Virus record (IMG/VR): IMGVR_UViG_3300042276_000826
Direction: 5' to 3' (one strand)
DNA length: 30,985 nucleotides
Source: an uncultured virus (IMG/VR IMGVR_UViG_3300042276_000826)
Taxonomy: Duplodnaviria; Heunggongvirae; Uroviricota; Caudoviricetes
Both the position numbers and the translations under genes were made by a program. The notes under the pieces are model-generated. The model did no database searches. It saw only the letters and a program-made list of their open reading frames with translations, and was not told the origin of the DNA. This document shows positions 6,773 through 30,759 of the stretch, in pieces. Positions within the stretch are counted from its first letter, which is position 1. Each line of letters starts with the position of its first letter.

Positions 6773-6812
6773 ATTTTGCTCCTTTATTTTTTATTACTAT
6801 ATGTATTTAATT

Positions 6813-6856: not shown

Positions 6857-6862
6857 ATATGT

Positions 6863-7146
6863 ATGAAATATACAAAAGAAATTACAGTTTATAGAACTTG
6901 TGTTTGCAATATAAATTATCATATTGTTTTTTCAACAAAATATAGAAGAAAAGCTCTAAATCAAGAAGTTGAAATTTCATTAAAAGAGATAATATATCAA
7001 ATAGCAAAAGATAAAGATTTTCAAATAATAGAGATAGAAGTTGGTGAATTAGACCATATTCATATTTTTATAAAAGCTCATCCTAAATATGCAATAGGAC
7101 AAATAGTTAAATACATTAAAGGAATATCAGGAAGATTGCTTTTTAT
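6863..7146 (+). pseudogene. tnpA: IS200/IS605 Y1 transposase TnpA, 5' part (interrupted)
   Basis: YHIVFSTKYRR, HUH motif DHIHI, KGISGR; continues at 13561. Confidence 0.92.
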
Positions 7147-7191
7147 CGCCCTTATGTAGGTGTGTAACCTTTTAGGTAAAAATAAAAAACT

Positions 7192-7455
7192 TTACTCCTT
7201 TTTCTCTTTTTTACCAACAAGTTCAGCTAGAATCTGATTAACACCATTTCTTTTATCGTTCACCCTCTCAAGTTGTATCACTCCACCATTAGGTGGACAG
7301 TCCATATCATCAAAAAGCTTTTCCACCGCTATTTGCATCACTTGCTCCGTAACATCATTTTCCCAACTAAAAAAGCCTTCATAGTAGGCCTCAAGCTTTA
7401 TTCGTCCTGTTTGGTGGTCATAGACTAGCTCTAATTGAGATGGTTCTTTGTTCAA
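7192..7455 (-). CDS. Conserved small terminal passenger protein (homologue of 30752-30985)
   Basis: Overlaps the res stop; Y.xQTGxIxL..DVTEQV..aveKLfDd shared with the last ORF in the window. Confidence 0.8.
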   Translation of the reverse strand: MNKEPSQLELVYDHQTGRIKLEAYYEGFFSWENDVTEQVMQIAVEKLFDDMDCPPNGGVIQLERVNDKRNGVNQILAELVGKKEKKE

Positions 7456-11942: not shown

Positions 11943-12971
11943 ATGGCACAACATTTCTTATTATCATCAAAAGCAAAAACTATCTCTTCTTACGACATCG
12001 CAGAGATGTCAAATGATGAAGCTACAAAAATCTTTGAGGAGCTAAGATGGGCTGATACAGACGGTAAGCCTGTTTGTCCTACTTGTGGTTGCACTCACAA
12101 CTACATAATAAACACAACTAGCCATAGAGGGAAACCTATAAAAAGATATAAATGTTCTGCGTGTAAAAAACAATATACGGTAACAACGGGAACTATCTTT
12201 GCTGATCATAAGCTACCATTGAAGAAATACTTGTATGCACTTGTGACTTATATAGATGCGGTAAAAGGTATTAGTGCTTTACAACTAAGTAGAAACTGTA
12301 GAATCCAATACAAAACAGCGTAGGTTTTACATAAGTTTAGAGCTATTATAAAAGAGCACACGCAGAGTGAAAAGTTAGAGGGTAGAGTTGAAATGGACGG
12401 CTGTTATATTGGCAAAACGAAACCTAAAAACAAAAAAGAGGATAGATTAGATTTAAGACTGGCTCAAAATGCAAACCCAAATAAAAGATGTGTTATGGTT
12501 GCAAGGGAAGTATCAAGTGATGGAAGTGGAGCAGTAGCTACAAGAGTTGGTATCACTAAAGGGGAATATAGTAATGTTATTTCAAAGTTTGCTCTTGATA
12601 ATGTAGAGAAAAATTCAACTATCCATAGCGATGGTGCTCCTGCGTATGAAAATCTAATGGCATATTATGAGTTAATTCAAGGAGATCATAGTAAAGCGTA
12701 TGTGGGAGAGAATGGCGAATCATCAAATCAAGCGGAATCTTTCTTTTCAAGATTTAGACGGTTACAATATGGTCAATGTCACAAGATAACCATTAAATAT
12801 TTAGAAAATTATGCTCTTGAAATTGCATACAGAGAAGATAATAGAAGAAGATCAAACGGTTTAATTATGAGTGATTTGGTATCTAAAGCTATGAATACAT
12901 CAAATTATAACCCTTGGGTGGGTTACTGGCAAGGGAATAGACCTGCTTGTGAGCAACTGCTTACTGCTTAA
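11943..12971 (+). pseudogene. IS1595-family DDE transposase (ISNha5-like) with an in-frame TAG at 12321-12323
   Basis: MAQHFLLS, zinc ribbon CPTC..CSAC, SALQLSR..YKTA*VLHK, VEMDG, HSDG, NQAESFFSRFRR; both parts are in the same frame. Confidence 0.9.
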
Positions 12972-15413: not shown

Positions 15414-15575
15414 TCCTTTTAATTATTAAATAGTATTATTTTATTAATTAAAGTCTCATTAATAGAATTTTATTGTTGTTTTTTGTAATAAGCAATATAT
15501 CCTTATATCAATTTATAACTATATATCAATATAGGACACCTCTTGAAGCACCATAAAATAGAGCGTGGTTTAATT

Positions 15576-15769
15576 TAAATCTGACAAGTGTCGCACTAAA
15601 TCTGACAAGTGTCGCACTAAATCTGACAAGGACAACAAACTAATCTGACAAGTGTCGCACTAAATCTGACAAGTGTCGCACTGTTTTATAGATTTGTTTA
15701 ATTTAAATCTGACAAGTGTCGCACTAAAAATCAAAAAGTATTTAAATCTGACAAGTGTCGCACTAAATC
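15576..15769 (+). repeat. Iteron array of the plasmid origin: six full and one partial 21-bp repeat
   Basis: TAAATCTGACAAGTGTCGCAC at 15576, 15597, 15618 (partial), ~15641 (one difference), 15661, 15704, 15743. Confidence 0.9.
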
Positions 15770-16070: not shown

Positions 16071-16163
16071 AGAAGCAATTAAAGAATTTTTAGCAAAAAT
16101 TAACACTACGAAATTAAGTCATATTAAAAAATAGCTATGTACTGCACAAAAAAAAGGATTAGC

Positions 16164-17909
16164 ATGAACAACAGCAAGCTGCTTATAATAAATAATCATC
16201 ATAGTCCAGACGGTGAAATACGATACCCAAGACAACAGGCTCAAGCCAATTTAACGATTAAGAAAAGAATTATTAAAGACAAAAATGGACGTGAAGTCCA
16301 AAGAAGAGTAACAACACCCAATGATGAAAAAATTGCTGATACTTGTACTCAAATTTTCCAAGAGTCCAATTTAGCCAAAGAGTTTGACTATACAGCGTTA
16401 AGAGAAATGGCCCTAACACAATTAGAGGAACGTTTCAATAAATACAACATGATAATCAGTGCAGCAACCAATGACGCTGAACGCTTAGATATTGAAAAAA
16501 GACGTGAAATTGCCATTGCTCAACATATACGCAACCATATTGAAAATAACATTAATCTGAAATTTGAATTTGACTATGACTCTTTTATTGAAATGACGGG
16601 TATAAAATCCGCAAAAAGAGTAGGGGAAGCACTTAGGATATTGTACGAAGCTCAAGGAAAAGCAAGCTATGAATACAAGTTGCCCGAAATCAGTGAAGAT
16701 TTTAAGGAAATTTCTTATGAGCTTGCAAAGGTCTCAACTGTTCCTAAAATTGGATTGGTTTTAGATGAAGAGATGGGGGCAAAATATGAAAACATCATGG
16801 ATTATGCTCAAAGCAATGTTTCAAATAAAAAGAAGCACATAAACGGCATACGTTTTGAATTAAGCAAGGCATATTTAACATCGGTTTTAGGATTAGGTAG
16901 AGATTTTACAGAACTTACACGAAAAGACAGAAATGCGTTTAAATCCTCGTACTCTTTTAGACTTGACACACTTGTTCGCTCAATTGAAAAAGTGCAGCAT
17001 ATAAAAAAGTTCAACTACTACACCATTGATGATATACAAAAAAAGTTTGGAACAAATTTTAAAGAGTATGCAGATTTTAAAGCAAGGGTGCTTAACCCTG
17101 CAATTAAAGACTTAAATGAGTTTACCGATTTAATAGTAGAACTCGTAGAGATAAAAAGTTCAAGGCAAGTGGTGGCCGTAAGTTTTAAAATCGCACGAAA
17201 ATTTAGTATTGATGGGCAAACAAAATTTGGCGTTAATAAAACAGCTTACTATATTGCCTCACGCCTATACTACTTCTCTAACCAAAAAATCAACAATTTA
17301 ATTGGCTTTGCACGTCACATTGAAAAAGAGCTAAAAATACCCTCACTTATACCCATGTATGCAGATAAAGAGGTACAAGAGTGGGAAGATGAAGCAGATT
17401 TGGCGGTTAAAACTGAATTAGAAGTAATTAAAATCATTGATGCAAATATCTCATTTTTTAAAAATAGGGGTCTTTATTATGATGAAAAAAGAATGTGTCT
17501 GATTGAAAAGGTTATGCAAAGCGATGAAAGTTCAGAGTCAAAAGAACCCAAAGAGGTTATTAAAATCATCAAAAAAGCCGATTATAAAATCACTGACCCA
17601 ATGACATCATTAAGATACATAAGAGAACTGATTGAAAACGAAGAGATTACCGAATTTTCAATCATTGATTTTATTCCATTTAAAGTGGCATGTTTAGAAA
17701 AAGGGTGGCTAAATATTGATACCATACATGAGTACCTGGTGAACAAACAAACCATTATCAAAGCCGTATTAAATAAAAACAGCGACTATTTCAGATTTGA
17801 TAATCCCATTATCAAAGAGTCCTTTGTCAACCACATGGCAAGAGAAACATTTAAAGAGCTGCACGATGAGTACCGACAAAGCATTGTCAATCTCACAAAG
17901 AACTCTTAG
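16164..17909 (+). CDS. rep: Plasmid replication initiator, Rep_3/RepB family, with long extensions (581 aa)
   Basis: SSYSFRL..YTIDDIQ..YADFKARVLNPAIKDLNEFTDL..RQVVAVSFKI; AAGGA RBS before ATG 16164; adjacent iterons. Confidence 0.88.
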   Translation: MNNSKLLIINNHHSPDGEIRYPRQQAQANLTIKKRIIKDKNGREVQRRVTTPNDEKIADTCTQIFQESNLAKEFDYTALREMALTQLEERFNKYNMIISAATNDAERLDIEKRREIAIAQHIRNHIENNINLKFEFDYDSFIEMTGIKSAKRVGEALRILYEAQGKASYEYKLPEISEDFKEISYELAKVSTVPKIGLVLDEEMGAKYENIMDYAQSNVSNKKKHINGIRFELSKAYLTSVLGLGRDFTELTRKDRNAFKSSYSFRLDTLVRSIEKVQHIKKFNYYTIDDIQKKFGTNFKEYADFKARVLNPAIKDLNEFTDLIVELVEIKSSRQVVAVSFKIARKFSIDGQTKFGVNKTAYYIASRLYYFSNQKINNLIGFARHIEKELKIPSLIPMYADKEVQEWEDEADLAVKTELEVIKIIDANISFFKNRGLYYDEKRMCLIEKVMQSDESSESKEPKEVIKIIKKADYKITDPMTSLRYIRELIENEEITEFSIIDFIPFKVACLEKGWLNIDTIHEYLVNKQTIIKAVLNKNSDYFRFDNPIIKESFVNHMARETFKELHDEYRQSIVNLTKNS

Positions 17910-17916
17910 TTTATGT

Positions 17917-18281
17917 TACCATATTTTACTTTTATAATATGACACTATTTAAAACATCACCACCTCATCAACCTCCAATTCAAGGGGCATCTTCTCCTCT
18001 TGTTTTGAGTTTCACTTCTCAATCAAAATTTTCAAAATTTGCAATCTCAACCCCTTTGCTCAAAACAGTTTTGCGGTGGTCTCCAAAGGGGGAACGTGCC
18101 CAAAACGACTCTTTTGTTGTAACAGCTTTTCCTTTGCCAATTTTGGGAGTTTTGGGAATTTTTCAAATTTTGTTTCGTGGGTGTGCGGTGGAATTTTTGG
18201 GAATTTGCAAATTGGGAAAAAGGGGGAGTTTGTAGTAAAAGGGTGGGTAAGAGTGTCATATTATAAATAAATAATATGGTA
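17917..18281. repeat. 30-bp inverted repeats (17917-17946, 18252-18281; 26/30) flanking a strand-skewed non-coding segment
   Basis: TACCATATTTTACTTTTATAATATGACACT versus reverse complement TACCATATTATTTATTTATAATATGACACT. Confidence 0.75.
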
Positions 18282-18308: not shown

Positions 18309-18334
18309 AAAGCCCACCAACCAAAGTGGGCTTT
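18309..18334. terminator. Probable bidirectional intrinsic terminator at the dinG stop
   Basis: AAAGCCCAC-CAACCAAA-GTGGGCTTT. Confidence 0.7.
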
Positions 18335-20789
18335 ATTTTAGTGAAGCAAAAATATCCTGGGCGGTTTGTGTTAAATCTTCTGGGTTGAAATATTGGTTGC
18401 TTGTAATTTGTTGCTCAATATTTATGCCTTTTTGTTTCATCCCCTCACTGTAAATTTTAAGCAACAATATCCAGATATTTTTAAAACGTTTGCTTTTAAG
18501 AAGCTCATTAAAATACTCTTGTGTCATAATGCTCTCGATGTTGATATTTTCATTAAGAATTATATTGGCTGCATCTGTAAGGGCTTGATACTCTTTTGTA
18601 TTGTCAATTTCAAACAGTTCTTTAATCTCACGGTCACTTTTATCAATTAAATAGCTAAAAAACAGCGTGTACAGTGCCGTATGGAATTTAAAACCACTCT
18701 TGCCTAATAATCCTTTTTTATATTTACTGTTAAGCAGTGCATAATCGACTTGTGTCGCTTTTTTGTCTAAGATTTTTTGGAATATTAGGTTTTTAGGTTT
18801 TTTAATTCGCCCATCAAGGATATATAATACAGCTTTATCGTTATAGTCTCGTATGGGTCGCCCAATGCCTTGAGTAAACTTAACAATCACTTCATTAAGA
18901 TAGCTTTCGCTTTTTGTGATCCCTATTCCTTTAACAATATCTTTTCCAATTCGTCCTTTGGGGGGCAAGAATGGGATTTTAGCTAAGAACATCTCATGCA
19001 GATATTTCCCTGCTAAATCTAATCCTGTGTAATACTGTTCTGTTCCAACAATGCAGCAAAGCTCTCCTTTGTCAACACTTTTTTTATAAACATCAATAAG
19101 CCGTGCCATTGATACCCCTTCTGTTGCAATAAAGACTCGCATATCCTCTCTTAAAGCTTGTAGTTTTTTCCCTATTGCTTGTGCATCCTCATAGCTTGTA
19201 CTTAAAACCAAAGCGTTGTATTGAATAGTGTTGGCAACAAATACAGCAATATTGGCTCTCCATTGTTTCATTTTTGCCTCATACTCCTTATCTCCCAATA
19301 AAGGTACAGTTAGTGCACTGTTATTGACAATGGTGTATAAAAAGTTCTCTTTTTCAAATAAAGAGTGGAACGTCTTAAACTGCATGTTTTCAATTCGACT
19401 GTTTAATAATCTATTTTTTGCAATCAAGGCCTCTTTTGCATCTTCGCTTAACTCTTTATTGTTTGCAATGAACTCATTAAAAGCCTCTTGTTCTGACGAA
19501 AACAGTCCGTTTCTACGAACACACCAATTAAAAGCCTCTTTGGTTGTTGAATTGCTTGTTCTTAGCGTTCCACTTAGGCAAAGTATCTTTGAGGTATTTC
19601 TTGCCCATAATGTTTTTTTAATCTCATACGTAGGGTAGCTGTTGGTTAATTCAATTCGGGGATAACCTTTGGGCGAAAAGCTTACCCTTATAAAACGTGC
19701 GTGTCTAAAACTAATAAGATTAAGTTCATTGAGTTCATTTTTTGTAAAACGGATATACTTCTCAAGCTCGCTGTCTTTTGTGATGTTTTCTATTTTAGTT
19801 AACTTTTCAGAGGTTTTAGAAAGATTTGTCATGTGTTGTAGTTCAATTTTAAAACTGCTTAATGCACTCAAAGCTCTCTCTTTATCATTTTCACCCAACA
19901 ACTGCTTTTGATACTTTAGAACAAGGTTTAATATGTTTTTGAGCCGTTTAATGTGTGTAAGGTTGTTATCTTCTTCAATGTGCTTTAAAATTCCTTCAAT
20001 AGAGTATTTGAGTCGAAACAAAGAAAAGCTTTTGGTTAAAACTGTTTTTGCAGCATCAAACAGCGTGTGAAACTCGTCAAAAATAATAGGGGTGTTAAAC
20101 AGCAGCTCTTTGTTTGTTATGTTGAGGTTCTTCATATTGCCCAATAATCTATAAATGATAAATAAATAGGCGTGGTTCATTACAATTATTTTATTATCTT
20201 GAAGTGCCTCAAAGATTGTGTCAAGCTGTTTTGGATTGATACTTGAGTCAATATCTTGTGCAAAAGAGGCATATTTTTTTAAATCTTCTTCTGGAATGCT
20301 CATGTCTTTAATAAAATCATCCAATAAAACATTATTTCTTAAAAGCTCTTTGTCCTTGTCCTTGTCCTTGTCAATCCCATTTTTACTTAAGACTCCATAC
20401 TTATCTAAGATAATCTCTTTATTGATGTTGGTCTCTTCAAATAAAGAGGGGGTTTTTTCAATGGTTTCAACAAGTAAATCTAAATCAATATAGTTGCTTT
20501 TACCTATTTCAACAACCAAACTCTCTTTTGTAATATCCTCAAATTTATCAAGATTCTCAATAAATTTGCTTTTAATTTCAAGGGCGTTTTTATTGGTATT
20601 GGTGGTAATAATCACGCTACGCCCATATTTATTACGATGTTCAAGTGCAGCTTTTAAAGCAATGTGTGTTTTACCGCTGCCTGTAGGTGATTCAATAACG
20701 GTAATTTGTTCATCGTTTGATTTTAAGAAAATATTGACAGCTTCTTGCTGATTTTTTTCTCTTGACTGTTTAAACTTTTCATAGCTCAT
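18333..20789 (-). CDS. dinG: CRISPR type IV-associated DinG helicase (CasDinG/Csf4)
   Basis: SPTGSGKT, MNHAYL, DEFH, LSGT, LSTSY, TGLDL, KIPF, QGIGRPIR..ILDGR; no Fe-S Cys cluster; adjacent to csf genes. Confidence 0.9.
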   Translation of the reverse strand: MSYEKFKQSREKNQQEAVNIFLKSNDEQITVIESPTGSGKTHIALKAALEHRNKYGRSVIITTNTNKNALEIKSKFIENLDKFEDITKESLVVEIGKSNYIDLDLLVETIEKTPSLFEETNINKEIILDKYGVLSKNGIDKDKDKDKELLRNNVLLDDFIKDMSIPEEDLKKYASFAQDIDSSINPKQLDTIFEALQDNKIIVMNHAYLFIIYRLLGNMKNLNITNKELLFNTPIIFDEFHTLFDAAKTVLTKSFSLFRLKYSIEGILKHIEEDNNLTHIKRLKNILNLVLKYQKQLLGENDKERALSALSSFKIELQHMTNLSKTSEKLTKIENITKDSELEKYIRFTKNELNELNLISFRHARFIRVSFSPKGYPRIELTNSYPTYEIKKTLWARNTSKILCLSGTLRTSNSTTKEAFNWCVRRNGLFSSEQEAFNEFIANNKELSEDAKEALIAKNRLLNSRIENMQFKTFHSLFEKENFLYTIVNNSALTVPLLGDKEYEAKMKQWRANIAVFVANTIQYNALVLSTSYEDAQAIGKKLQALREDMRVFIATEGVSMARLIDVYKKSVDKGELCCIVGTEQYYTGLDLAGKYLHEMFLAKIPFLPPKGRIGKDIVKGIGITKSESYLNEVIVKFTQGIGRPIRDYNDKAVLYILDGRIKKPKNLIFQKILDKKATQVDYALLNSKYKKGLLGKSGFKFHTALYTLFFSYLIDKSDREIKELFEIDNTKEYQALTDAANIILNENINIESIMTQEYFNELLKSKRFKNIWILLLKIYSEGMKQKGINIEQQITSNQYFNPEDLTQTAQDIFASLK

Positions 20790-20816
20790 TAACTACTCCT
20801 TATATATATAGGGCAA

Positions 20817-20909
20817 ATTATACAATATTTTGTTTTTTTTGTCAATTATATATTTTCTTATAAATATTAATAAAAAAATATTGACATTAATTTTTATTTA
20901 TGTTAATAT
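20817..20909. promoter_or_regulatory. Divergent sigma70 promoters for dinG and the cas6-csf operon
   Basis: - strand TTGACA-17-TATAAT (20845 to 20817); + strand TTGACA(20881)-17-TAATAT(20904) with TGn. Confidence 0.7.
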
Positions 20910-20940
20910 TTCGTCATAAAACAAAAAAAAAGGGGTCAAA

Positions 20941-21735
20941 ATGATAAGTTGCCTAGTCATTCAATTAGACAAAATGCTGCCCATAAACAATTCAGATATT
21001 GACAAAATTGTGTTAGTAGAAGATGTAAGGGATAATATTATTAAAATGTGCGACAATGAAAGCGATGAGCTTTACAGTCTCATTAACAATCAACACCACT
21101 CTTTACCGCATGTAGTTTATGCAAAGCCTTATGAGGACACCATTAAAATTTATGGTTTGGGAGATAAAGGGCTAAATGCTATCAATGCTATTTTTAAAAA
21201 TGTTGTAATGAAGCGGACGTTTAAAATCAAAAATGAGATATACACCATAAAAGGTATTCCAACGGTTGAAGGCGATATTGATTTCTTGCCATATAATAAT
21301 GGAAGAGAAAACACTTACACAACCATTACTCCTATTAATGTGTTTAATAAATTCAACCATAAGGTGTTTAAGGCGATTTTATACAAACACTTTAAAGATG
21401 GAAATTTTAATCTTGAGCAAAAAGAGCAAGTAAAAACATTTAACGAAGAGATTGGAACGTATGCAAGTGAGCAAATTAAAGATTATATTGCCTACTTACT
21501 TTCAAAAGTTCTCAAAAAAGACAAAGCCTATTTTGAATTTGTCTCTAAAATCGAAATTAAGTGGGAAGACATTAGGCTCATTCATGGAAAGTATCACAGT
21601 GAGGAAAAAAGAATGCCTATGATTATTGGAAAGTTTAGAACCAATTTTGTGTTGCCAAAATTTGTGGGATATAAAATAGGAAAAGGCTTTGGTGAACTTT
21701 CTTTAAAAACAAACAGTGTTCTTAGAAGGGGTTAA
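20941..21735 (+). CDS. cas6: Cas6-family crRNA endonuclease (Csf5/Cas6b-like)
   Basis: C-terminal FRTNFVLPKFVGYKIGKGFGEL G-rich loop; YTTITP; position in the locus. Confidence 0.82.
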   Translation: MISCLVIQLDKMLPINNSDIDKIVLVEDVRDNIIKMCDNESDELYSLINNQHHSLPHVVYAKPYEDTIKIYGLGDKGLNAINAIFKNVVMKRTFKIKNEIYTIKGIPTVEGDIDFLPYNNGRENTYTTITPINVFNKFNHKVFKAILYKHFKDGNFNLEQKEQVKTFNEEIGTYASEQIKDYIAYLLSKVLKKDKAYFEFVSKIEIKWEDIRLIHGKYHSEEKRMPMIIGKFRTNFVLPKFVGYKIGKGFGELSLKTNSVLRRG

Positions 21736-21736
21736 G

Positions 21737-22390
21737 ATGGAATTTACAAACTTAAAAATTGAAATATTCTTAGAAAACAGTGTTGCGATGCAAAAAAACA
21801 AAGCAGCGTTTGACTCAATTTTGGCAATGCTTTATTTCAATGATCAAAAAAACAAGGGCACATTTAATGGTGACTATGAACAACATTTAGATTTCCTAGA
21901 CATGACAGATGGGGTATATCATACATCATATCCTATTTTTAATGGTGTAAAATATTATGACAAAGAGAAGTTGATTAAAAAATTCGACCATGAGATGTAT
22001 GCAAAATATGGAGAAATCACTTCTAAAAATGGAAAAGCAAGAGGTGTTGTAGATACAACTACAGCCAAGTATAAAAATGAGTTTTACAGCATCGAGAGAA
22101 TTGGTGTTACGTGCATTACTTACTATGTAAGAGGCAATCAAGAAGTAATTGAAAGATTACTAAAGAAGTTGCAATTTATTGGCAAGAAATCATCATTGGG
22201 CTGGGGAAAAGTAAAATATATCACAATAGAAGAGATAAAAACAGACTGTTCAATCTTCAAAGATAATAAGCTTATGAGAAATATTCGCCTTAACAATGCT
22301 TTTGGTTATAAAGCCGATAAGGTTAAGTTGTCAAGATTGACTCATCCATATTGGAGTAAAACTGATTTAGTGGAATGTTTAGTTCCATGA
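21737..22390 (+). CDS. csf3: Type IV Cas5-group subunit Csf3
   Basis: FDSILA, YVRGN..IERLL..L.FIGKKSSLGWGKV, MRNI, HPYW. Confidence 0.88.
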   Translation: MEFTNLKIEIFLENSVAMQKNKAAFDSILAMLYFNDQKNKGTFNGDYEQHLDFLDMTDGVYHTSYPIFNGVKYYDKEKLIKKFDHEMYAKYGEITSKNGKARGVVDTTTAKYKNEFYSIERIGVTCITYYVRGNQEVIERLLKKLQFIGKKSSLGWGKVKYITIEEIKTDCSIFKDNKLMRNIRLNNAFGYKADKVKLSRLTHPYWSKTDLVECLVP

Positions 22391-22585
22391 GACTTGTTTT
22401 TAAATATTGTGCGTATATTCCTTATGAGAATAGTTCATAAGCACCTCTATTAAGCTTCTTGTAAGCAAGAAGATTATTGATATTTTGAGCTTTCCGATGA
22501 AAGCGTGTTCTTTTAAAAGCTATTGTTAAGTTTATTAAAAAATAAAAATTTTCTTCAAAATGCCTTTTTGTGGTGTTTTTGAAGA
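22391..22585 (+). promoter_or_regulatory. CRISPR leader (AT-rich, with several hairpins)
   Basis: Non-coding, lies at the intact-repeat end of the array. Confidence 0.65.
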
Positions 22586-22870
22586 GTATTAAACCTTATT
22601 GTAGAGATTGGAATGGAATCAAGACCTTGCTCGTGAGCAGTTGGTAGAAGTATTAAACCTTATTGTAGAGATTGGAATTTTGTATTATTGCCTATTGTCG
22701 CAATTTTAAATCTGTATTAAACCTTATTATAGAGATTGGAATATAAAATCGTGTTTCGTATATCTTCATTTTCAATTGTATTAAACCTTATTATAGAGAT
22801 TGGAATCTGAATGTACCGAGCAATTTTACGAAAACTAAAGTGTATTAAACCTTACTATAGAGATTGAAAA
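22586..22870 (+). CRISPR. CRISPR array: five 29-bp repeats, four 35-bp spacers, plus a degenerate sixth repeat at 22893-22921
   Basis: GTATTAAACCTTATT(G/A)TAGAGATTGGAAT at 22586, 22650, 22714, 22778, 22842 (degenerate); 64-bp period. Confidence 0.96.
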
Positions 22871-22935
22871 TTAATGTTTATGCAAACATATTATATTAAA
22901 CCTCATTAAAGAGCTATCAAAAAGAAAGGAAAAAC

Positions 22936-23826
22936 ATGAGCATAAATACACAAAAAATGATTTGTGAAGCCTTTGAGTACCAAAAACCCTTTGCGGTTGA
23001 TGTATTGGTTTCAAGCGTAAAAGATGCAAAAGTCATTGAGTTGGTTGACAACAACACTGAAACGTGTGCCATGTGTGGACAAGTGCATCCAGTTGGCTAT
23101 AGGTCAAAAAACGGTGCTGCAAGTTTGCTTAAGGCAATGATTTCAGATACTTACAATGAATGCTACTCTTTGAGTATAAGCAACTTTATTTGTGAGTATT
23201 GTGGCTACAGCTTCAAAGCATACGGAAGCCCTAGTAAAATGAAGGGGTATGGAAAAAAGATGATAAATGTTCTTATCCATGAGGGGAAAGCTATAGAGAA
23301 AAACTTTAACTCTAATGATAAGAATGAATTGTATCAAATTCTTCTTGCCCCTCCAAAGCCCCCGTTTGTAGTTTTGATTAACTCAAGGGGAACGGTTTTG
23401 GAAAATTTGGTTTTTACTGCCAAAGCTACCATTTCAAAAGAGTTAATTGTTGTTAATTATGGATTAAATAACTTAGAAGTTAATCCAAAAGAGGTTTTTG
23501 CTGCGATTGAAGATGCGAAAATTATCGCCAATGAGTATGGCATTGAGGTAGGTTCTGACACAATTTGGAATAGAGCCGATAATGTATCTATCAAGGTCAA
23601 GCGAAAAACAAAAAAAGGCATGATTGATTTGAATGCTTTTTATGATGATATGGGGTTGTTTATCGAAAAATACAATAGAGATTGCAGGCTAGTTGGGAAA
23701 ATGGTTTTAGCAGCATACCTCAAAGACAATCCTATGTCTAAAACAAAAACAAGTGCAAAAGGTGACACCTTGATAAAAGAGGTTTCTAACAATACTACAA
23801 GCCAAACAAGCTTGTTTGATTTTTAA
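22936..23826 (+). CDS. csf1: Type IV large subunit Csf1 (Cas8-like)
   Basis: Zinc finger CAMCG..ICEYCG; LLAPPKPPFVVL..ENLVFTAKATIS. Confidence 0.88.
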   Translation: MSINTQKMICEAFEYQKPFAVDVLVSSVKDAKVIELVDNNTETCAMCGQVHPVGYRSKNGAASLLKAMISDTYNECYSLSISNFICEYCGYSFKAYGSPSKMKGYGKKMINVLIHEGKAIEKNFNSNDKNELYQILLAPPKPPFVVLINSRGTVLENLVFTAKATISKELIVVNYGLNNLEVNPKEVFAAIEDAKIIANEYGIEVGSDTIWNRADNVSIKVKRKTKKGMIDLNAFYDDMGLFIEKYNRDCRLVGKMVLAAYLKDNPMSKTKTSAKGDTLIKEVSNNTTSQTSLFDF

Positions 23827-23846
23827 ATTTAAAAAAAGGATATAAA

Positions 23847-24926
23847 ATGTCAAGAATTATTAATACAACAGGTGCGGATTTCTTAATTGATGTAACCACA
23901 GTTACTCCTATGTTGCAAATTGAGCCAACAGACAGTAAAAACAAAGACACATTAACAAAAGCCTCTAAGGTCATAACAAAGAAAAGAAAATATGTGACTG
24001 AAAATGGTAATGTTGTTGACGTACCTTTCTTTAGTGCCAACGGCTATAGAGGGATTTTAAGACGAAATCTAGCAAGTGCAATATTTGGTGAAATTGAGAA
24101 AAAAGATGGGGGGAAATTTGGGTTAAACTCTATTCATTTATATGCAAGTGGTGGCGGAACTTCTAATGATGGTATTAAAGGGCTTAACTATGTTGATAAA
24201 ATTAATCTAAGAGAAGATAATCCATTTATCTCTTGTTTTGGTGCAGGCTTGAGTGATATTGACGGAAAACTATCTGTTTCTGATATTACCCCTTTAAACA
24301 AAGATGCAAGACATATTGGACACCAATTTGCTGTAAGATTTGATGAGTCATTAAGAAGCTCTGTATTATCTCCTTTGCTTGATGCTGAAAGTGTAGAAAA
24401 ACATGCAGAAGAGATGTTAAAATTAAAAGCTGCTACAAAATCATTGCAAAAGCTTGAAGAAAAGCTATCAAAGCTTAAAAAAGAGCTAAGTGAAAATCCA
24501 GATGATGCTGATTTAATTGAGGAAATCAATCAGTTGGAAATTGATATTGTAGCTGAAAAAGAAGCAAAAAATATGTCTTATCAACAAACTTACAAAGCGG
24601 AGTATATTTTACCAAACACAAAAATGAGTTCAAGCATTGGCACAAGAGCGGGTTACGAATTAACCGAACTTGAAAGAGCTATGATGTTGTTTGGATTAAT
24701 TCAAACATCTCAACAATCAATTGGTTCATACAGTCGAATTGGTTGGGGTACAAATAAATGGGAAGTTAAAAACAGCGAGGGTGAAACATTGTTTAGAACT
24801 GTTCCTAATGGAAAATATGTACTGCAAAAAGAGACTGAAATTACTGAACTTGGGAAAGCGATGTTGAAGCCTTTTGAAGAGTGGTTGGAAAATGTTACAA
24901 GAGAATCAATCTTTTTAATGGATTAA
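23847..24926 (+). CDS. csf2: Type IV backbone subunit Csf2 (Cas7)
   Basis: VPFFSANGYRGILRR, SGG, NPFISCFG, GKLSVSD, IGSYSRIGWG. Confidence 0.92.
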   Translation: MSRIINTTGADFLIDVTTVTPMLQIEPTDSKNKDTLTKASKVITKKRKYVTENGNVVDVPFFSANGYRGILRRNLASAIFGEIEKKDGGKFGLNSIHLYASGGGTSNDGIKGLNYVDKINLREDNPFISCFGAGLSDIDGKLSVSDITPLNKDARHIGHQFAVRFDESLRSSVLSPLLDAESVEKHAEEMLKLKAATKSLQKLEEKLSKLKKELSENPDDADLIEEINQLEIDIVAEKEAKNMSYQQTYKAEYILPNTKMSSSIGTRAGYELTELERAMMLFGLIQTSQQSIGSYSRIGWGTNKWEVKNSEGETLFRTVPNGKYVLQKETEITELGKAMLKPFEEWLENVTRESIFLMD

Positions 24927-24955
24927 TTTTGTTTACTGTTGGTGATTTAAACGGA

Positions 24956-24991
24956 TTGATACTCCACCCCATAAATGAGGTGGAGTATCAA
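24956..24991. other. Strong stem-loop downstream of csf2
   Basis: TTGATACTCCACC-N10-GGTGGAGTATCAA (13-bp perfect stem); no T-tract on the + strand. Confidence 0.7.
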
Positions 24992-25131
24992 CAAAAACAA
25001 AAGATATAAACGGTATGCAGTTAAATTTAAGATATATCATTTTAAAAGAGATCGATATTATGTAGCAAAGGCACAAGACTAAAAAATCCCTTTTTGATAC
25101 AATAATCTCATATTAATCTAAAAGGTTACTT

Positions 25132-25596
25132 ATGAGCAAACACCCTTTATACAACGAAACAGGATTGTTAAAAAACAACAAACCTCATGTTCTTTATGCC
25201 TTAGCCAATAAACAAATGGAGCTAAAGGAGCTTCAAAGAGAGTATGAGGCTAGAATTGCCCAAATTAAACTTGATTTAACTGCTGTTGAAATAACCATTT
25301 GTCTCTTTGATGAAAATGGCAGAGATACCATTAACCGACTCAATGGGGTTAAAAAAAGAGCTTCCAGTCCACGTCTCTTTAAGAACGGTGAATTAACTGC
25401 GTTGGTGATAAAGTGTATTAAAGAGAGCGATACACCCATTACTAATAAAGAGATTGCGTTAAAAATAAGAACGATTAAAGGCATTGAGACAGATATTTGG
25501 GTTAAAGTCAAAGATTGCACAAAGAATTTATCAAACAGAGGAATTATAGTCAATACCGATAAGTATGCAAGAGAGTGTGTTTATGCGATTGCATAG
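25132..25596 (+). CDS. IS1595-associated coiled-coil + winged-HTH-like accessory protein
   Basis: Clear homologue of 12961-13458. Confidence 0.85.
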   Translation: MSKHPLYNETGLLKNNKPHVLYALANKQMELKELQREYEARIAQIKLDLTAVEITICLFDENGRDTINRLNGVKKRASSPRLFKNGELTALVIKCIKESDTPITNKEIALKIRTIKGIETDIWVKVKDCTKNLSNRGIIVNTDKYARECVYAIA

Positions 25597-25649: not shown

Positions 25650-26668
25650 TTATGCACCTAATCGTTCTGTTAACCTCTTGTTGCCTTGCCAATACCCACA
25701 AAACTCATTACTCACCAATGAGTTTAAACACTTTGTTAAAATATCATCAAAGATTTCTTTATTGGATAGTCTTCTTGTATCTTCTCTGTATGCAATCTCA
25801 TTGGCATAGTTTGATAAATATAAATTCCCAATCTTATGACATTGCCCGTATTGCATTCTTCTAAATCGTGCATTATAAGATTCACTTTGATTGTTGTTTT
25901 CACCATATACCCCACTGTACTCTACTTGATGATTCACTCTGTTCATATTGTAGTGTGCGGTTAAATCATCATAGGCATTTGATTCATCGGCATGGATTGA
26001 TGAACCCACTTTGATATGGTTATAGGCAATCTCTCTTACCTCTTGTGAGTTTTCAGATTTTAACACAAAGGTTTTAGTTTTAACTGCTCCCACACACTTA
26101 CTTGACTCTTCTGCTCTTTGTCTTAAAGAGATAATGACTCTTTTATTGGGTTTATGTACTTTTCTTCTGTCCACTCTTTTTTCAATTTGATTTTTAGGTC
26201 TTACATAACCATTAACATATACCCCGTCCATTTCACACGTTCCCTCAAACTTTTCATCACTGTTATAATCCATAAGTGATTCTCTGATTTTATGAGATAA
26301 AAAACCCATGCGGTTTTATATTGCACATCCAAATCTCTTGATAACTGCAAAGCTGAAATGGATTTAACGGCATTGGTAAATAGGGCAATGGCTAAAAGGT
26401 AAATTTGTAACGGTTTTTTATGCGAAGCAAAAAGAGTGCCACTTGTAACACTAAAAGTATGAAAGCACTCTTTGCATCGGTATTGAAATCGTGTTTTTAA
26501 AAAGTAGTGCTTTTTAACTGAACCACAACAAGGACAAACAGGCTCCCCGTTGGTTTGATTCCAACGAATTGTTTTAAACATTTCAAAGGCTTCTTTATCG
26601 CTCATGGTGGCGATTTTTAAAATTGATAGGTTTCTTGCTTTTGATGATAAAAGATAGTGTTGAGACAT
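25650..26668 (-). pseudogene. IS1595-family transposase, frameshifted at a GGGTTTTTTA run (~26298-26307)
   Basis: MSQHYLLS, CPCC..CKEC, SALQLSR..YKTAWV / LSHKIRE, CEMDG, HADE, NQSESYNARFRR. Confidence 0.9.
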
Positions 26669-26824: not shown

Positions 26825-27070
26825 ATGAAATTAAACGACTTAATAAACAAAATTCATAAAACCATTGAAGCCAAAGAGATAGCAAATGTTACTCAGCCTG
26901 ATATGGCAAAAAGAATTGGGGTAAGCCCTAGAACATATACAGAGTACAGCAGAGGTGTCAATCAACCATTAGCTATGAAAGCATTATTAAATATGCTTAA
27001 TGAGTTGGAAGATGAAGATATTATAAAGATTGTAAGGCTCTGGAAAAATAAAGATGAAAAAGGTTTATAA
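26825..27070 (+). CDS. XRE-family HTH regulator, controller-like
   Basis: TQPDMAKRIGVSPRTYTEYSRG; TAATG-coupled to the RM gene. Confidence 0.85.
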   Translation: MKLNDLINKIHKTIEAKEIANVTQPDMAKRIGVSPRTYTEYSRGVNQPLAMKALLNMLNELEDEDIIKIVRLWKNKDEKGL

Positions 27071-30000
27071 TGGGAAATGCTGATTATTTTTATAAAATTG
27101 ATAATTCAAAAACAGCTATTATTGTTGAAGCTAAACAAGAACTTGACAAAAAACATATAAAAAATTTAGATAATGGTGGCGATGAGGCACTTTTATTTAA
27201 TAGTGAAGATTTATCAACAGATATTTCTAAAACACAAGCATATAAAATCCCCAAAAGAAAGATTAAAAGCTACTTGCATAAAAAAGTGGTTGATTATGAT
27301 AAATATTCTGACTATACTAAAAAAATAATTTCAATTTTAAACCAATTTATAACCGATTTAAAAGACAAAAAACTTAATTCAAAAGAAGAAAATGTTAAAA
27401 AGTATATTATTGAGCCAATACTTGATTTAGCTGAATATAATCGTGGTTCTATGGAGCATGGGATTGATAATGAAAAGTACAAGTCACCCGAAGAACAAAT
27501 TAAATCATATCTTATGGCAAAAGAGTTTATAGAATATAAAGTTTATGGGATTTTAACAAATGGGTTGGTTTGGAAATTATTTTATAAAGACAAAGATGGC
27601 TTTCTTTCAAACGAGTCTATTGCAATATTTGACTTAACACTTTTATTGGATGATTCAATTTTAGATAGTGAAAAAAATAAATTATGTGCATATTTTATAG
27701 AAATATTCAAATTTAACAATTTATTGGCAAGTGAAAAAAATTTTAAATGTTCTTTAATGGATAATTTATTGGAGATTGATGATTGTATTTATGCTGAAAG
27801 TTTAGACTTAAGTGAAAGATTATTTAAAAATATAGTTGATAAAGGGTATATTGAACTTGCAAGTGGTATCGCTTCTGCGTCTAAAAAAAATAAAATAAAC
27901 CTTTCTTCTGAGCAATTAGAACAGTATTCTATGAAAATATTATTTAGATTAATATTTATTCTCTATGCGGAAGCAAGAGGGTTTTTGCCATTAAATCAAA
28001 CCACCTACTATAATAGATATTCTTTGGAATCTATTGCAATACAACTTGGCAAGAATAAAGAAAAAGACACTCCGATTGAAGATGACCTTTGGGCGAGAGT
28101 AAATGACCTATTTAGAACTATTGATAATGGAAAAATGGGGGGAAACATTAAAGTTCCTGTTTATAATGGTGGGTTATTTAGAGAGTATAAAGACGATTTA
28201 TTAAATAAAATTTATATTGAAAATAAATATTTAATCGAAGTTCTTTTTTCCCTTATTTACCACGAAAAAAAAGTTACATACGATAGAATAGATTATAACT
28301 TATTAGATGTAAAATATATTGGAACTATTTATGAAAAACTATTGGATTATAAAATTGTTGAGTTTGATGGAAAATATAGCTTAAAAGCAAAAGGTGAAAA
28401 TAATAAAAGAAAAGGACTTGGTGCATATTATACTCCTGATAATGTAACAGCATATATGATAAAAGAGAGTTGCGACAAGAAAATTAACTTATTTAAAGAT
28501 GAGTTTAAAAATGCCTATAATACTGTCACTTTAGCAAATATAGATACTTTACAAGATTTTTGCGTAATCAAGAGGCTTTTTGATTTAAGAATAATAGATA
28601 TTTCATGTGGAAGTGGGCATTTTTTAATTGACACAATAGAATACTTGTCTAATGCTTGTTTAGAACTTAAAGATTTTTACGAAGATTATAAAGATTTTAA
28701 AAGTGAAACGATTGCACTTATTAAACAAAAACAAGAAAGTATAAATAGCCATGATGAATTTATTACAAGCTCTTTAGATAAAGCCACTTTTAGAGATGTA
28801 TGTAAAAGATTTATACTAAAAAAGTGCATTTATGGAATTGACATAAACCCTTTAGCAACAGACATTACAAAGTTTGCCATTTGGCTAGAAACTTTTATTG
28901 TTGGAATACCATTGTCTTTTATGGACAATCATATAAGATGTGGGAATTCTGTTTTAGGTTTTATTGATAATATTTATTATGATATTGATTTATCAAAATT
29001 ATCATCTGCAAAAGGTAATCTTTTTTTAGACGACCTAGTTCAAACTTTTGATAAAAAGAAAAAAGAAATTCTTGGGTTGATAAATGATATTAGTATTTTA
29101 TCTAACTCAATAAATACCAATACAGATATAACAACAAAAGAGATTGAAAACAATTATGCAGATTATTCTAAAATTGACAGCAAAGTTCAGTATATAAAAT
29201 TTAATCTTATACCTTTGACTATATTTTATTATATGCTAAAAGATGACTCAATTTTAAAAACATTGAATACAAAAGCAAATATACATATTTTAAATAAAAT
29301 TCTTGAAATTTTTAATGATGCTATAAATTACACTGATATTGTTGAATTTACTCAAACATATTATATTTATAGTAAAAAACCCGAAGTCTTATATGATGAG
29401 ATTAAAAAGCATCAAATCAACAAGGATTTTTTTAATGAAATGCTTGTTTTTATTAAAGAAAAAAGAGAGCAATTATCAAACAAAATATCAAGCATTATAG
29501 ATACGGTTTATAATCACAATTTCAATAACTGGTTCATAGAGTTCCCAAATATCAAATTCGATATAGTAATAGGAAATCCACCGTATGTAAGGGCTGATAC
29601 TGATGGAGATTTTGCACAGCAAAGAGAGGTTATATTAAACTCATTTGACTATGAAACACTCTATGAGAAATGGGATTTAATGATGGCTTTTATAGAAAGA
29701 GGATTTAAACTATTAAAAGATGATGGAATTTTATCTTTGATTATAAAAGATGATTATTTAAAAGCCAAATATGCCTCAAAATCAAGAGATTATTTTATTG
29801 AAAATGCAAAAATAAATAGGATAGATTTTTTGAGTGATATTCAGGTGTTTAGTGGTGTTGGGGTTAAAAATATCATTTTAGAATATCAAAAATCTTCTAA
29901 TGACACTAATATTCCATTAAGATTAAAGCACAATGGTTCATTTGGAAGTTGTCAAGAATTAGATACTGATTTGCAAAGTGTTTTAAATGAGAATATATTT

Positions 30001-30759
30001 AATGAAATTGCAATTACCTCACAGAATACACAATATGATAATTGTGTTGAATGGGGGGGGATTTTCTATCTCAGCGTAGGAATGGTTCTTCAATCAGATG
30101 AAAAAAGAGCAAAAGGCTTATTTGTAAAAGATGATTTGATAAGTAGTTTTGAAGACAATACACATACTAAGCCATATATTGAGGGTAAAGATATTGAAAC
30201 TTATAAAATAGAGAGAATACGATATTTAGAGTGGGGAACAAGTAGAAGCCCAGCCTTACTAAGAAGACCAACATTTTCCGAACTATATATCTATCCTAAA
30301 ATTATGATGGGAAGCATGACATCAGGTATTTACGATGATACTGGACTTGTTTCAAATCATAGTGTATTGATTTCCACAAAGTGGGATAATTTGGCTTTAG
30401 TGGATAATAAAAGCATCAATATGTCAATAGGAAAATATTATAGTGTAAAAGGGGATGAAATACAGTCAATAAAAGATGATTTAATATTAAATTCAAAAGA
30501 TTTTAACATTAAATATTGTTTATCAATTTTAAATTCTTCTTTCGCAAAAAGATTCTTTGAAACAATAGGAAGAAGTAGTGTTGGGCTTTACCCCGATGAT
30601 GTTAAAAAACTACCCATAAAAAAAATACCGCTACATGAGCAAGAAGTTTTTGCACAAAAAGTAGATGGAATAATTAAGCTTAAAAAAGATTTACTCAATC
30701 AAGATACTGCTATACTTGAAAAAGAACTTGATGATATGGTGAGCAAACTATATGAATAA
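27070..30759 (+). CDS. Type IIG (Eco57I-like) fused restriction-modification enzyme
   Basis: D..EAK, Q..SY, GILTNG..W; YNGGLF, GAYYTP, DISCGSGHFL, GIDINP, VIGNPPY; TaqI-C-like tail SILNS..LPI. Confidence 0.9.
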   Translation: MGNADYFYKIDNSKTAIIVEAKQELDKKHIKNLDNGGDEALLFNSEDLSTDISKTQAYKIPKRKIKSYLHKKVVDYDKYSDYTKKIISILNQFITDLKDKKLNSKEENVKKYIIEPILDLAEYNRGSMEHGIDNEKYKSPEEQIKSYLMAKEFIEYKVYGILTNGLVWKLFYKDKDGFLSNESIAIFDLTLLLDDSILDSEKNKLCAYFIEIFKFNNLLASEKNFKCSLMDNLLEIDDCIYAESLDLSERLFKNIVDKGYIELASGIASASKKNKINLSSEQLEQYSMKILFRLIFILYAEARGFLPLNQTTYYNRYSLESIAIQLGKNKEKDTPIEDDLWARVNDLFRTIDNGKMGGNIKVPVYNGGLFREYKDDLLNKIYIENKYLIEVLFSLIYHEKKVTYDRIDYNLLDVKYIGTIYEKLLDYKIVEFDGKYSLKAKGENNKRKGLGAYYTPDNVTAYMIKESCDKKINLFKDEFKNAYNTVTLANIDTLQDFCVIKRLFDLRIIDISCGSGHFLIDTIEYLSNACLELKDFYEDYKDFKSETIALIKQKQESINSHDEFITSSLDKATFRDVCKRFILKKCIYGIDINPLATDITKFAIWLETFIVGIPLSFMDNHIRCGNSVLGFIDNIYYDIDLSKLSSAKGNLFLDDLVQTFDKKKKEILGLINDISILSNSINTNTDITTKEIENNYADYSKIDSKVQYIKFNLIPLTIFYYMLKDDSILKTLNTKANIHILNKILEIFNDAINYTDIVEFTQTYYIYSKKPEVLYDEIKKHQINKDFFNEMLVFIKEKREQLSNKISSIIDTVYNHNFNNWFIEFPNIKFDIVIGNPPYVRADTDGDFAQQREVILNSFDYETLYEKWDLMMAFIERGFKLLKDDGILSLIIKDDYLKAKYASKSRDYFIENAKINRIDFLSDIQVFSGVGVKNIILEYQKSSNDTNIPLRLKHNGSFGSCQELDTDLQSVLNENIFNEIAITSQNTQYDNCVEWGGIFYLSVGMVLQSDEKRAKGLFVKDDLISSFEDNTHTKPYIEGKDIETYKIERIRYLEWGTSRSPALLRRPTFSELYIYPKIMMGSMTSGIYDDTGLVSNHSVLISTKWDNLALVDNKSINMSIGKYYSVKGDEIQSIKDDLILNSKDFNIKYCLSILNSSFAKRFFETIGRSSVGLYPDDVKKLPIKKIPLHEQEVFAQKVDGIIKLKKDLLNQDTAILEKELDDMVSKLYE

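Follow-up and report, generated by a model that had tools for sequence, protein, structure and literature searches.

Type IV systems of CRISPR and CRISPR-associated (Cas) proteins are usually described as having no adaptation genes and as borrowing Cas1-Cas2 from type I systems of the host. The stretch of DNA analyzed here, 30,985 nt from an uncultured virus (IMG/VR record IMGVR_UViG_3300042276_000826; in the following referred to as the window), carries a type IV locus whose array lies inside the gene block, between csf3 and csf1, and an earlier note on this sequence had taken this position as the mark of a divergent variant. The locus raises the question of whether the embedded array is an inherited architecture or was placed there secondarily, and of what a short, partly degenerate repeat unit immediately upstream of csf1 might be. 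Comparison with related loci indicates that the embedded array is, with high confidence, the outcome of a lineage-specific rearrangement and deletion and not the hallmark of a subtype. The unit upstream of csf1 can be described as a mini-array, which we hold, with slightly better than even confidence, to be a conserved CRISPR RNA (crRNA)-like autorepressor of the CreR type.

Gene block and origin of the embedded array

The gene order read earlier from the sequence was borne out by the open reading frames (ORFs) and by profile searches: dinG lies on the minus strand and is followed, after a gap of 151 nt, by cas6, csf3, a non-coding stretch of 195 nt, the array, csf1, and csf2, all on the plus strand. 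The features of this region are as follows.

18333–20789, minus strand: CasDinG/Csf4 helicase, 818 aa (NCBIfam Csf4/DinG, E = 4.3e-34; PADLOC DinG, 1.1e-40)
20941–21735, plus strand: Cas6, Cas6b-like (PADLOC Cas6_1_IVE, 5.7e-6; AlphaFold2 and Foldseek)
21716–22390, plus strand: Csf3 (Cas5) (NCBIfam TIGR03116, 6.9e-13; PADLOC, 1.2e-34)
22396–22440, plus strand: cas1 3'-end remnant B, ...VFKYCAYIPYENSS-stop, matching the last ~15 codons of Cas1 in related loci
22441–22585, plus strand: CRISPR leader with homology to the leaders next to cas1 in two related loci (L005 and L004, see below)
22586–22870, plus strand: CRISPR array of five repeats and four spacers (repeat search, shuffles)
22871–22892, plus strand: 22-nt pseudo-spacer
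22893–22921, plus strand: degenerate second repeat, with eight mismatches to the repeat, abutting the csf1 ribosome-binding site
22936–23826, plus strand: Csf1 (Cas8-like, small) (NCBIfam TIGR03114, 2.3e-12; PADLOC, 3.2e-17)
23847–24926, plus strand: Csf2 (Cas7) (NCBIfam TIGR03115, 2.2e-19; PADLOC, 3.8e-36)
24991–25056, plus strand: cas1 3'-end remnant A, ...DINGMQLNLRYIILKEI (tblastn with Cas1 of the related loci)

The identities of the five cas genes can be regarded as secure, and the locus combines the Csf1, Csf2, and Csf3 effector genes with a DinG helicase in place of an effector nuclease, as required for an assignment to type IV. All NCBIfam scores of Csf4/DinG, Csf3, Csf1, and Csf2 were far below the curated cut-offs, and the cas proteins of the window are therefore divergent. 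The AlphaFold2 model of Cas6 (predicted local distance difference test score 83.6) had Cas6b (4z7k_A) as top Foldseek match (E = 1.6e-9; TM 0.58/0.68), followed by the type IV-A1 Cas6, so that the previous description as a Cas6b-like nuclease holds; the score of its match to the Pfam family Cas6b_C (E = 1.6e-4) was under the gathering score. Searches against Pfam and NCBIfam detected no HD or HNH family among the five cas proteins. The DinG proteins of this clade have ~810–818 aa and extend by ~150 aa past the helicase C-domain (window 18333–18780, residues ~670–818). A role of this C-terminal extension as a nuclease was considered and rejected, as it had no family match and showed no Cys/His motif on inspection by eye. 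Judged from the sequences, the interference module consisting of DinG, the Cas6b-like Cas6, Csf3, Csf1, and Csf2 appears intact.

A collection of 5.8 billion proteins contained 38 clusters of Csf2 relatives, nearly all of which are unnamed metagenomic sequences, and the closest named Cas6 (74% identity) belongs to a metagenome-assembled genome (MAG) of the Arcobacteraceae. Csf2 scans of genome contigs (two scans) and viral contigs (one scan) yielded no relatives, and the whole locus had no match at the DNA level among plasmids. Among plasmid proteins, Csf2 matched only that of Campylobacter concisus pICON, and DinG matched seven records, mostly in the helicase C-domain. Five metagenome loci were obtained, of which L003, L004, and L005 include 8 kb on each side; in L002 and L006, the csf3-csf1 gap is not visible because of their short length. 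With Csf2 identities of 53–63%, L003, L004, and L005 all keep the order dinG (minus strand)/cas6/csf3/csf1/csf2, and in all three csf2 is followed by genes for Cas4, Cas2, and Cas1 (Pfam E values of 1e-20 to 1e-70), for which I-B-type profiles were the best. Downstream of cas1, these relatives have a leader of ~150 nt and an array of 17–29 repeats of the same 29-nt class. Across the window and these three loci, csf3 and csf1 are separate ORFs in every case, 47–545 nt apart. Since it is found in all three relatives, an effector operon with its own adaptation module and array can be regarded as the normal layout of the clade, and the ancestral locus was probably organized as dinG <-> cas6-csf3-(mini-array)-csf1-csf2-cas4-cas2-cas1-leader-array. 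A clade that has its own cas4-cas2-cas1, and one member of which has visibly just lost them, provides a natural before-and-after pair for the minimization of type IV systems. L004 also possesses a second full array beyond dinG (1626–2474, minus strand), with a leader 95% identical to its main leader and with three spacers that are duplicated internally.

The statement of the earlier note that the window lacks cas1 and cas2 is correct as far as intact genes are concerned, and it can be extended to cas4, but two 3' remnants of cas1 are present. Remnant A, 65 nt after csf2, has 77–82% amino acid identity to Cas1 residues ~295–316 and 92% nucleotide identity to L005 (10754–10814). Remnant B directly follows the csf3 stop codon in another frame and runs straight into the leader; the corresponding Cas1 ends are ...CIIEYSEYTSYENSS-stop in L005 and ...EYCEYEPY... 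in L004. Only ~4–6 codons are missing between the two remnants, as would be expected if the 3' end of cas1 had broken once. The leader itself is 65% identical to that of L005 over 178 nt (E = 1e-16) and 63% identical to that of L004 over 189 nt (E = 1e-7). Because this leader carries the last codons of cas1, the array was placed after csf3 secondarily, and because cas1 remnants remain, the absence of cas1 and cas2 is a deletion, which removed cas4, cas2, and most of cas1. The embedded array can thus not serve as the mark of a variant, given that it follows cas1 in all three relatives and that its leader bears a cas1 tail. Neither is an array inside the gene block new in itself or distinctive, as the ordinary IV-A1 system of pGSUB1 has the order csf3-CRISPR-csf4.

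Relative to the ancestral layout, the block from the pseudo-spacer through csf1-csf2 to cas1 piece A and the block from cas1 piece B through the leader to the array appear to have swapped places. On its right side, the moved block is joined within a repeat, and the last repeat of the array (R5) has the 3' signature TTGAAA found in the first mini-array repeat of L004, with TTGGAA in the window's own repeats, which suggests repeat-to-repeat recombination. If so, the rearrangement shows that a whole array can land on a putatively regulatory mini-array by recombination. Past remnant A, the original sequence has been replaced; what follows is unrelated to the relatives and consists of a 154-aa ORF followed by an element of the IS1595 family of insertion sequences (IS). 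At 24953–24989, exactly between the csf2 stop codon and remnant A and thus at the deletion junction, lies an inverted repeat (GATACTCCACC...GGTGGAGTATC) whose stem has 11 bp. Two points weigh against the reconstruction: no repeat remains after remnant A, and both conceivable routes, excision as a circle with re-insertion or duplication plus deletions, are inferred, the exact order of events not being recoverable.

The 29-nt repeats start at 22586, 22650, 22714, 22778, and 22842 and thus have a period of 64 nt, and the four spacers of 35 nt are located at 22615–22649, 22679–22713, 22743–22777, and 22807–22841; none of 100 shuffles gave any match. R1 is identical to R2, and R3 to R4. R5 (22842–22870) has three mismatches and doubles as the first repeat of the mini-array. 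With minimum free energies of 0 to -0.4 kcal/mol the repeats are unstructured, in line with the earlier description of weakly structured 29-nt repeats and 35-nt spacers. The leader contains two weak hairpins. No terminator-like site separates the array from csf1, which makes a single transcript spanning the array and csf1-csf2 plausible and, on this sequence evidence, likely.

A 4.5-kb stretch was present in 14 runs of as many studies, every one of them labelled as wastewater metagenome (a run was counted when at least half of the sampled words of this stretch were present), six of which are possibly identical to the source. The window array had no significant match to plasmids or phages (best E values 3e-2 and 1e-1), and spacers 1 and 2 had no exact match in the viral contig collection. 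Likewise, the L003 array did not match plasmids, and none of the 74 spacers of the loci matched any locus compared. Self-targets were found neither for the four window spacers (best extended seed ≤10) nor for the two extra spacers of the L003 mini-array (no site ≥9). The sequence of spacer 2 (22679–22711; 33–34 of 35 nt) occurred in a non-CRISPR context in X10 and X14, two of the four runs examined. This protospacer-like site is preceded by CTG and lies just upstream of a ribosome-binding site and an ATG; it likely represents a natural target in the same communities. Three of these four runs also contained a related leader (19 differences over 22423–22614) followed by a different first spacer of 36 nt, and sister arrays with other spacers thus circulate in the same communities.

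Apart from a secondary rearrangement, three other explanations of the locus have to be considered. There could be a new type IV subtype that has always been without an adaptation module and whose defining, original layout has the array between csf3 and csf1. This would agree with the gene order of the window and with the one canonical repeat-spacer unit that L003 has in the same gap, but we consider it highly improbable, since the main array follows cas4-cas2-cas1 in all three relatives with flanks, since the leader starts with the last codons and the stop codon of cas1 and a second cas1 piece follows csf2, and since the csf3-csf1 gap of L005 spans 47 nt and has no repeat. Even less credible is an artefact caused by mis-joining at the CRISPR repeats. 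The window is indeed a metagenome assembly with pairwise identical repeats (R1 and R2, R3 and R4), and none of the run contigs compared covers the whole array. However, the unusual junctions lie outside the identical repeats, and each of them is covered: one contig of run X10 comprises the csf3 stop codon, the cas1 tail, the leader, and R1-S1-R2-S2 (22113–22766) with 0 differences, another independent contig reproduces the stretch of R5, pseudo-spacer, and csf1 (22847–23116), and the stretch of csf2 and remnant A is reproduced by contigs extending to 25200. Misassembly is therefore unlikely, as independent contigs of other runs reproduce the critical junctions without differences. A third possibility is that the locus is a decaying, non-functional remnant with lost adaptation genes, flanking insertion sequences, and a short array, as the deletion of cas4-cas2-cas1, the loss of the downstream array, the IS1595 copy 0.7 kb downstream, and the lack of targets for any of the four spacers in reference collections might suggest. 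We regard this as unlikely, if less so than the two former explanations, because all five cas ORFs are full length with sizes like those of the relatives, strong divergent predicted promoters have been kept (see below), the identical locus occurs in runs from many studies, and spacer 2 has its match of 33–34 of 35 nt outside CRISPR arrays in two of four runs; moreover, most described type IV systems have no adaptation genes and are yet active, according to the available parts of PMC7038947 and PMC11656645.

Mini-array upstream of csf1 and candidate autorepression

The pseudo-spacer and the degenerate repeat between the array and csf1 had not been part of the earlier note. In three of the four loci (window 22842–22921; L003 7012–7090; L004 6671–6745), a degenerate mini-CRISPR consisting of a repeat, a pseudo-spacer of 21–23 nt, and a degenerate repeat is found inside the cas locus just upstream of csf1. 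The 5' two-thirds of the degenerate repeat are repeat-like and track each locus's own repeat, and its 3' part (AAGAGCTA) is conserved across the loci. In L003, the mini-array comprises a repeat, 23 nt, and a shortened repeat, with one extra canonical repeat-spacer unit and no leader in front of it; L004 has two degenerate repeats separated by 21 nt.

Repeat-like sequences were also observed elsewhere. L003 has a second mini-array directly after the dinG stop codon (2786–2884, minus strand), with a repeat containing one mismatch, a 41-nt spacer for which no self-target was found, and a repeat with six mismatches. On the IV-E reference plasmid (L001), a solitary degenerate repeat with seven mismatches is located between csf2 and the array (8070–8099). 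A repeat-like 29-mer within dinG of the window (19906–19934, minus strand) has nine mismatches to the repeat and shares its first 11 nt with the degenerate mini-array repeat; it may be a chance occurrence.

The gap between dinG and cas6 contains the following predicted features.

20817–20845, minus strand: predicted dinG promoter, TTGACA-17-TATAAT, 12/12 (consensus scan only)
20849–20875, minus strand: predicted pseudo-spacer target, with the protospacer from 20870 to 20849 and the 5' flank TTTTA at 20875–20871
20881–20909, plus strand: predicted cas6-operon promoter, TTGACA-17-TG-TAATAT, 10/12 (consensus scan)

The predicted target lies between the two divergent -35 boxes, and both promoters are the best sigma-70-like matches of the region. 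As the number of promoter-like sites in the region equals the expectation from shuffled sequences (25 vs. 21.7 ± 4.9), the dinG and cas6 promoters are to be taken as consensus matches only. An Rfam scan of 20700–25200 gave only a chance match to a small nucleolar RNA (E = 0.25). A gap stretch of 35 nt (20865–20899) also occurs, with one difference and a 3-nt deletion and between unrelated flanks, in a 32-kb contig of higher depth from runs X7 and X12.

Complementarity between pseudo-spacers and gaps was scored as contiguous matches from position 1, with every sixth base ignored; in Cascade-type complexes, every sixth base is flipped out and unpaired. The pseudo-spacer of the window (TTAATGTTTATG...) matches the minus-strand site TTTTA-TTAATATTTAT... 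at positions 1–5 and 7–11. The same site is present in L004, whose pseudo-spacer matches it at positions 1–11. L003 has another pseudo-spacer (ATATTCTTTTTTTATT...), whose target in the L003 gap is also another one and is matched from position 1 to 16, with mismatches exactly at 6 and 12 and with ATTTA as flank, so that TTA directly precedes the target in all three loci. The resulting own-gap scores are 12 nt for the window, 12 nt for L004, and 16 nt for L003, and these were reached by shuffled pseudo-spacers in 106, 176, and 3 of 20,000 trials, respectively. The pseudo-spacers of the window and L004 have near-identical seeds, with a single difference at position 6, and diverged 3' halves, and each matches the gap of the other locus with a score of 12. 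Scores did not exceed 10 for L003 against the window or L004, for any pseudo-spacer against the gap of L005, and for all 74 genuine spacers from the four loci against any gap. Two of the four non-self seed sites in the 31 kb of the window are within the 151-nt gap, the second one being at 20887–20897, and the sole non-self seed site in the 17 kb of L004 is also in the gap.

These matches resemble a known mode of regulation. Mini-CRISPRs called CreA or CreR occur in intergenic regions of cas loci and repress cas promoters via partial matches; their RNA loads into the effector, and the match is PAM (protospacer adjacent motif)-proximal (as described in part of 10.1101/2023.03.10.532045). Type IV-A exerts silencing through binding, and it has been described that PAM-distal mismatches abolish its interference and that DinG is recruited only after formation of an extended R-loop (part of PMC11519345). 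By analogy, the cas6 promoter, possibly together with a leader promoter, would transcribe cas6-csf3-leader-array-csf1-csf2 as one unit. Cleavage of the repeats by Cas6 would release four canonical crRNAs, by which the Csf complex and DinG would be guided to other mobile elements, and the same cleavage would yield a fifth, crRNA-like RNA, in which R5 supplies the 5' handle, the degenerate repeat supplies the 3' handle, and the 22-nt pseudo-spacer lies between them. The first 12 nt of this RNA could pair with the site in the dinG-cas6 gap that has the TTA flank and lies between the two divergent promoters. Because this match would be too short for a full R-loop and for loading of DinG, the Csf complex is proposed to stay on the gap and to repress its own genes until canonical crRNAs or inhibitors titrate it. 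In the window, guides, regulator, and the csf1-csf2 message would then derive from one precursor, with R5 shared by array and regulator. The explanation as a whole, that is, an IV-E-related module (see below) in a rearranged locus with CreR-type autorepression, in which transcription, processing, and repression are inferred, appears reasonably probable to us. If a CreR-like autorepressor is present, RNA-guided self-regulation would extend to the only class 1 type that normally already acts by transcriptional silencing, and the clade would represent a compact, self-limiting CRISPR interference (CRISPRi) module.

Several observations weigh against autorepression. Shuffles of the seed only hit the gap in 0.8–6% of trials, and pseudo-spacers as well as gaps are very AT-rich. 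The window and L004 share seed and site, so that they are not independent and there are effectively two instances. L005 has only the csf3-csf1 gap of 47 nt and no mini-array, the lone protospacer-like contig, for spacer 2, has CTG instead of TTA as 5' flank, and the end of R5 together with the pseudo-spacer has a same-strand similarity to the cas6 promoter (TTGAAAA-TTAATGTTTAT vs. TTGACA-TTAATTTTTAT), which could reflect promoter paralogy instead of a guide-target relationship. From such points an alternative can be built in which the unit of pseudo-spacer and degenerate repeat is what decay has left of an array end, or serves passively as 5' untranslated region of csf1, and in which the likeness to the gap stems from AT-richness or from shared promoter architecture (an internal csf1 promoter) and involves no RNA-guided regulation. 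A weak promoter-like sequence, TTGAAA-17-CATATT (9/12), does overlap R5 and the pseudo-spacer, promoter-like sites are no commoner than in the shuffles, up to 6% of the trials with seed-only shuffles are successful, and L005 manages without the element; together with the same-strand likeness to the cas6 promoter, these points keep a passive element a possibility to be reckoned with, albeit a rather doubtful one. It is at odds with the conservation of the element at the same place in loci with Csf2 identities of only 53–63%, two of which have no array there, and with the degenerate repeat, whose 5' part tracks the repeat of each locus. In L003, a distinct pseudo-spacer fits the gap of its own locus along 16 nt, the only mismatches being at 6 and 12 (3 of 20,000 shuffles); this match is on the opposite strand and thus unexplained by promoter paralogy, and TTGAAA-17-CATATT is not conserved in this locus. 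For these reasons we favor autorepression over a passive element.

Classification and closest known systems

The proposed relationship of the window to the putative subtype IV-E of Pinilla-Redondo et al. (2020), represented by C. concisus pICON (CP021643; IV-E in the supplement of PMC7038947), and to IV-A1, represented by Geoalkalibacter pGSUB1, was assessed by pairwise searches, profiles, and phylogeny. In phmmer comparisons, Csf2 scored 68.9 bits against the IV-E and 19.4 bits against the IV-A1 reference, Csf3 scored 47 vs. 15 bits, Cas6 matched the IV-E ORF only, and DinG was equidistant between both. A profile of the Csf2 family gave 128 bits on the IV-E representative and ≤51 bits on any solved type IV Csf2. 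The phylogeny of Csf2 that the earlier note had proposed as a check was calculated with FastTree from 84 sequences: 12 family members, representatives of ≥300 aa ranked down to P0135, the three representatives most similar to IV-A1, and both references; representatives of <300 aa, lower-ranked ones, and IV-A2, IV-A3, IV-B, and IV-D references are outside this tree. The window family falls into a clade of 29 sequences (support 99) and the IV-E reference into a clade of its own with three sequences (support 100), both inside a group of 65 sequences (support 96), and the IV-A1 reference with its three nearest representatives, used as outgroup, is set apart by a branch with support 99. The divergence from IV-A1 and from the IV-E reference that had been suspected is thus found in phmmer, profile scores, and the tree alike. 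In Csf2, Csf3, and Cas6, the family comes nearest to IV-E, yet it constitutes a clade of its own.

Like IV-E, the window has a dinG gene divergent from the effector genes, csf3 directly before csf1 (in contrast to IV-A), a plasmid location, repeats of ~29–30 nt (GTTTTA...GTTTAGAA), and probably a host from the same phylum, the Campylobacterota. The fusion of Csf3 and Csf1 described as characteristic of IV-E (part of PMC7038947) is absent from the window, where the PADLOC fusion profile matches each half separately. In IV-E, cas6 follows this fusion, whereas cas6 comes first in the window and csf3 and csf1 are separate, with the array or mini-array between them. The Csf2 proteins are only ~25% identical, and the relatives of the window have cas4-cas2-cas1, in contrast to the six IV-E loci, none of which has an 'Adaptation_near' entry (PMC7038947 Data_2); rare cases of Cas1/Cas2 beside other type IV loci are listed in Data_5 of PMC7038947. 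With the IV-A1 systems of pGSUB1 and Pseudomonas oleovorans, the window shares DinG, Cas6, Csf1-3, an array, the lack of a nuclease, a plasmid location, and, in the case of pGSUB1, an array inside the gene block (csf3-CRISPR-csf4); the expected mechanism, crRNA-guided transcriptional silencing with DinG (part of PMC11519345), would also be shared. IV-A1 differs by 37-nt repeats, a Csf5-type Cas6, a much lower sequence similarity, and the IV-A gene order csf5-csf1-csf2-csf3, which is not found in the window (cas6-csf3-csf1-csf2).

The mini-array compares best with the CreR/CreA elements of I-B in Haloarcula hispanica, I-E in Salmonella enterica, and V-A. As in these, a unit of repeat-like, spacer-like, and repeat-like sequence resides in an intergenic gap of the cas locus, what remains in the first repeat is the 5'-handle part and in the second one the 3'-handle part, and the putative PAM-proximal match to the own promoter region is partial; in H. 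hispanica the target likewise lies between divergent promoters (part of 10.1101/2023.03.10.532045). Differences are that the effector of the window is nuclease-free, that the first repeat of the putative regulator is shared with a working array, and that the function is here deduced from sequence. Similarities to type I-B modules include the Cas6 fold nearest to Cas6b, the Cas1, Cas2, and Cas4 of the relatives that are best matched by I-B profiles, and the unstructured repeats of ~29–30 nt, but these parts are joined to a type IV effector and DinG and not to Cas8b/Cas7/Cas5/Cas3, and the adaptation genes of the window are gone.

A survey of mini-arrays lists 166 CAS-IV-A loci with a mini-array fraction of 0.00 (in the available part of PMC10120712), and the 2025 classification keeps only IV-A, IV-B, and IV-C and mentions no such variant in its available part (PMC12669027). 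In the literature searched, which did not extend to Moya-Beltran et al. 2021, nothing was found that describes the clade or reports a CreR-like element for type IV. A tentative reading, to which we assign somewhat less than even probability, is thus that the window represents an undescribed type IV clade, sister to IV-E in the broader Csf2 group, with an I-B-type adaptation module of its own and with the first type IV CreR-type autorepressor located within the cas mRNA. The array would have been captured onto this regulator by repeat-to-repeat recombination, so that a single transcript would be cut into guides, regulator, and csf1-csf2 message, which would all compete for one complex.

Plasmid setting and neighboring elements

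The window is AT-rich (~30% G+C) and has a plasmid-like content, with ParA/ParB, a Rep3-family initiator, two restriction-modification systems, and IS200/IS605 and IS1595 elements. Outside the CRISPR locus, the following features define its setting.

15568–15769: replicon iterons of 21 bp (Tandem Repeats Finder)
16137–17909, plus strand: Rep3-family replication initiator (Pfam Rep3_C, 1.2e-12; NCBIfam RepM, 1.4e-14)
25650–26668, minus strand: IS1595-family element bounding the shortened CRISPR locus, with a zinc-ribbon ORF and a DDE ORF as in the other copy

The initiator is preceded by the iterons, and dinG comes directly after this replicon, which agrees with the earlier placement of the locus beside a replicon; together with the profiles, it also substantiates the assignment to a plasmid-type, DinG-associated type IV system. 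The interference module thus belongs to a Rep3 plasmid of wastewater communities; among named relatives, that from the Arcobacteraceae MAG is the nearest. The ORFs bordering the CRISPR locus, 25132–25596 (154 aa) and 17939–18235 (98 aa), had no match in Pfam, NCBIfam, or PADLOC.

A second IS1595-family copy, split into two ORFs likewise, is located at 11943–12971, and the two copies are only ~73% alike in DNA. At 5438–7159, a TnpB-like ORF of 444 aa on the minus strand and a Y1 TnpA of 98 aa on the plus strand form an IS200/IS605 pair. Two restriction-modification systems, at 7452–11563 and 27070–30759, lie on either side of the region formed by the replicon and the CRISPR locus: a type III pair with Res and Mod, both encoded on the minus strand, and a type IIG enzyme of 1229 aa (Eco57I/MmeI-like).

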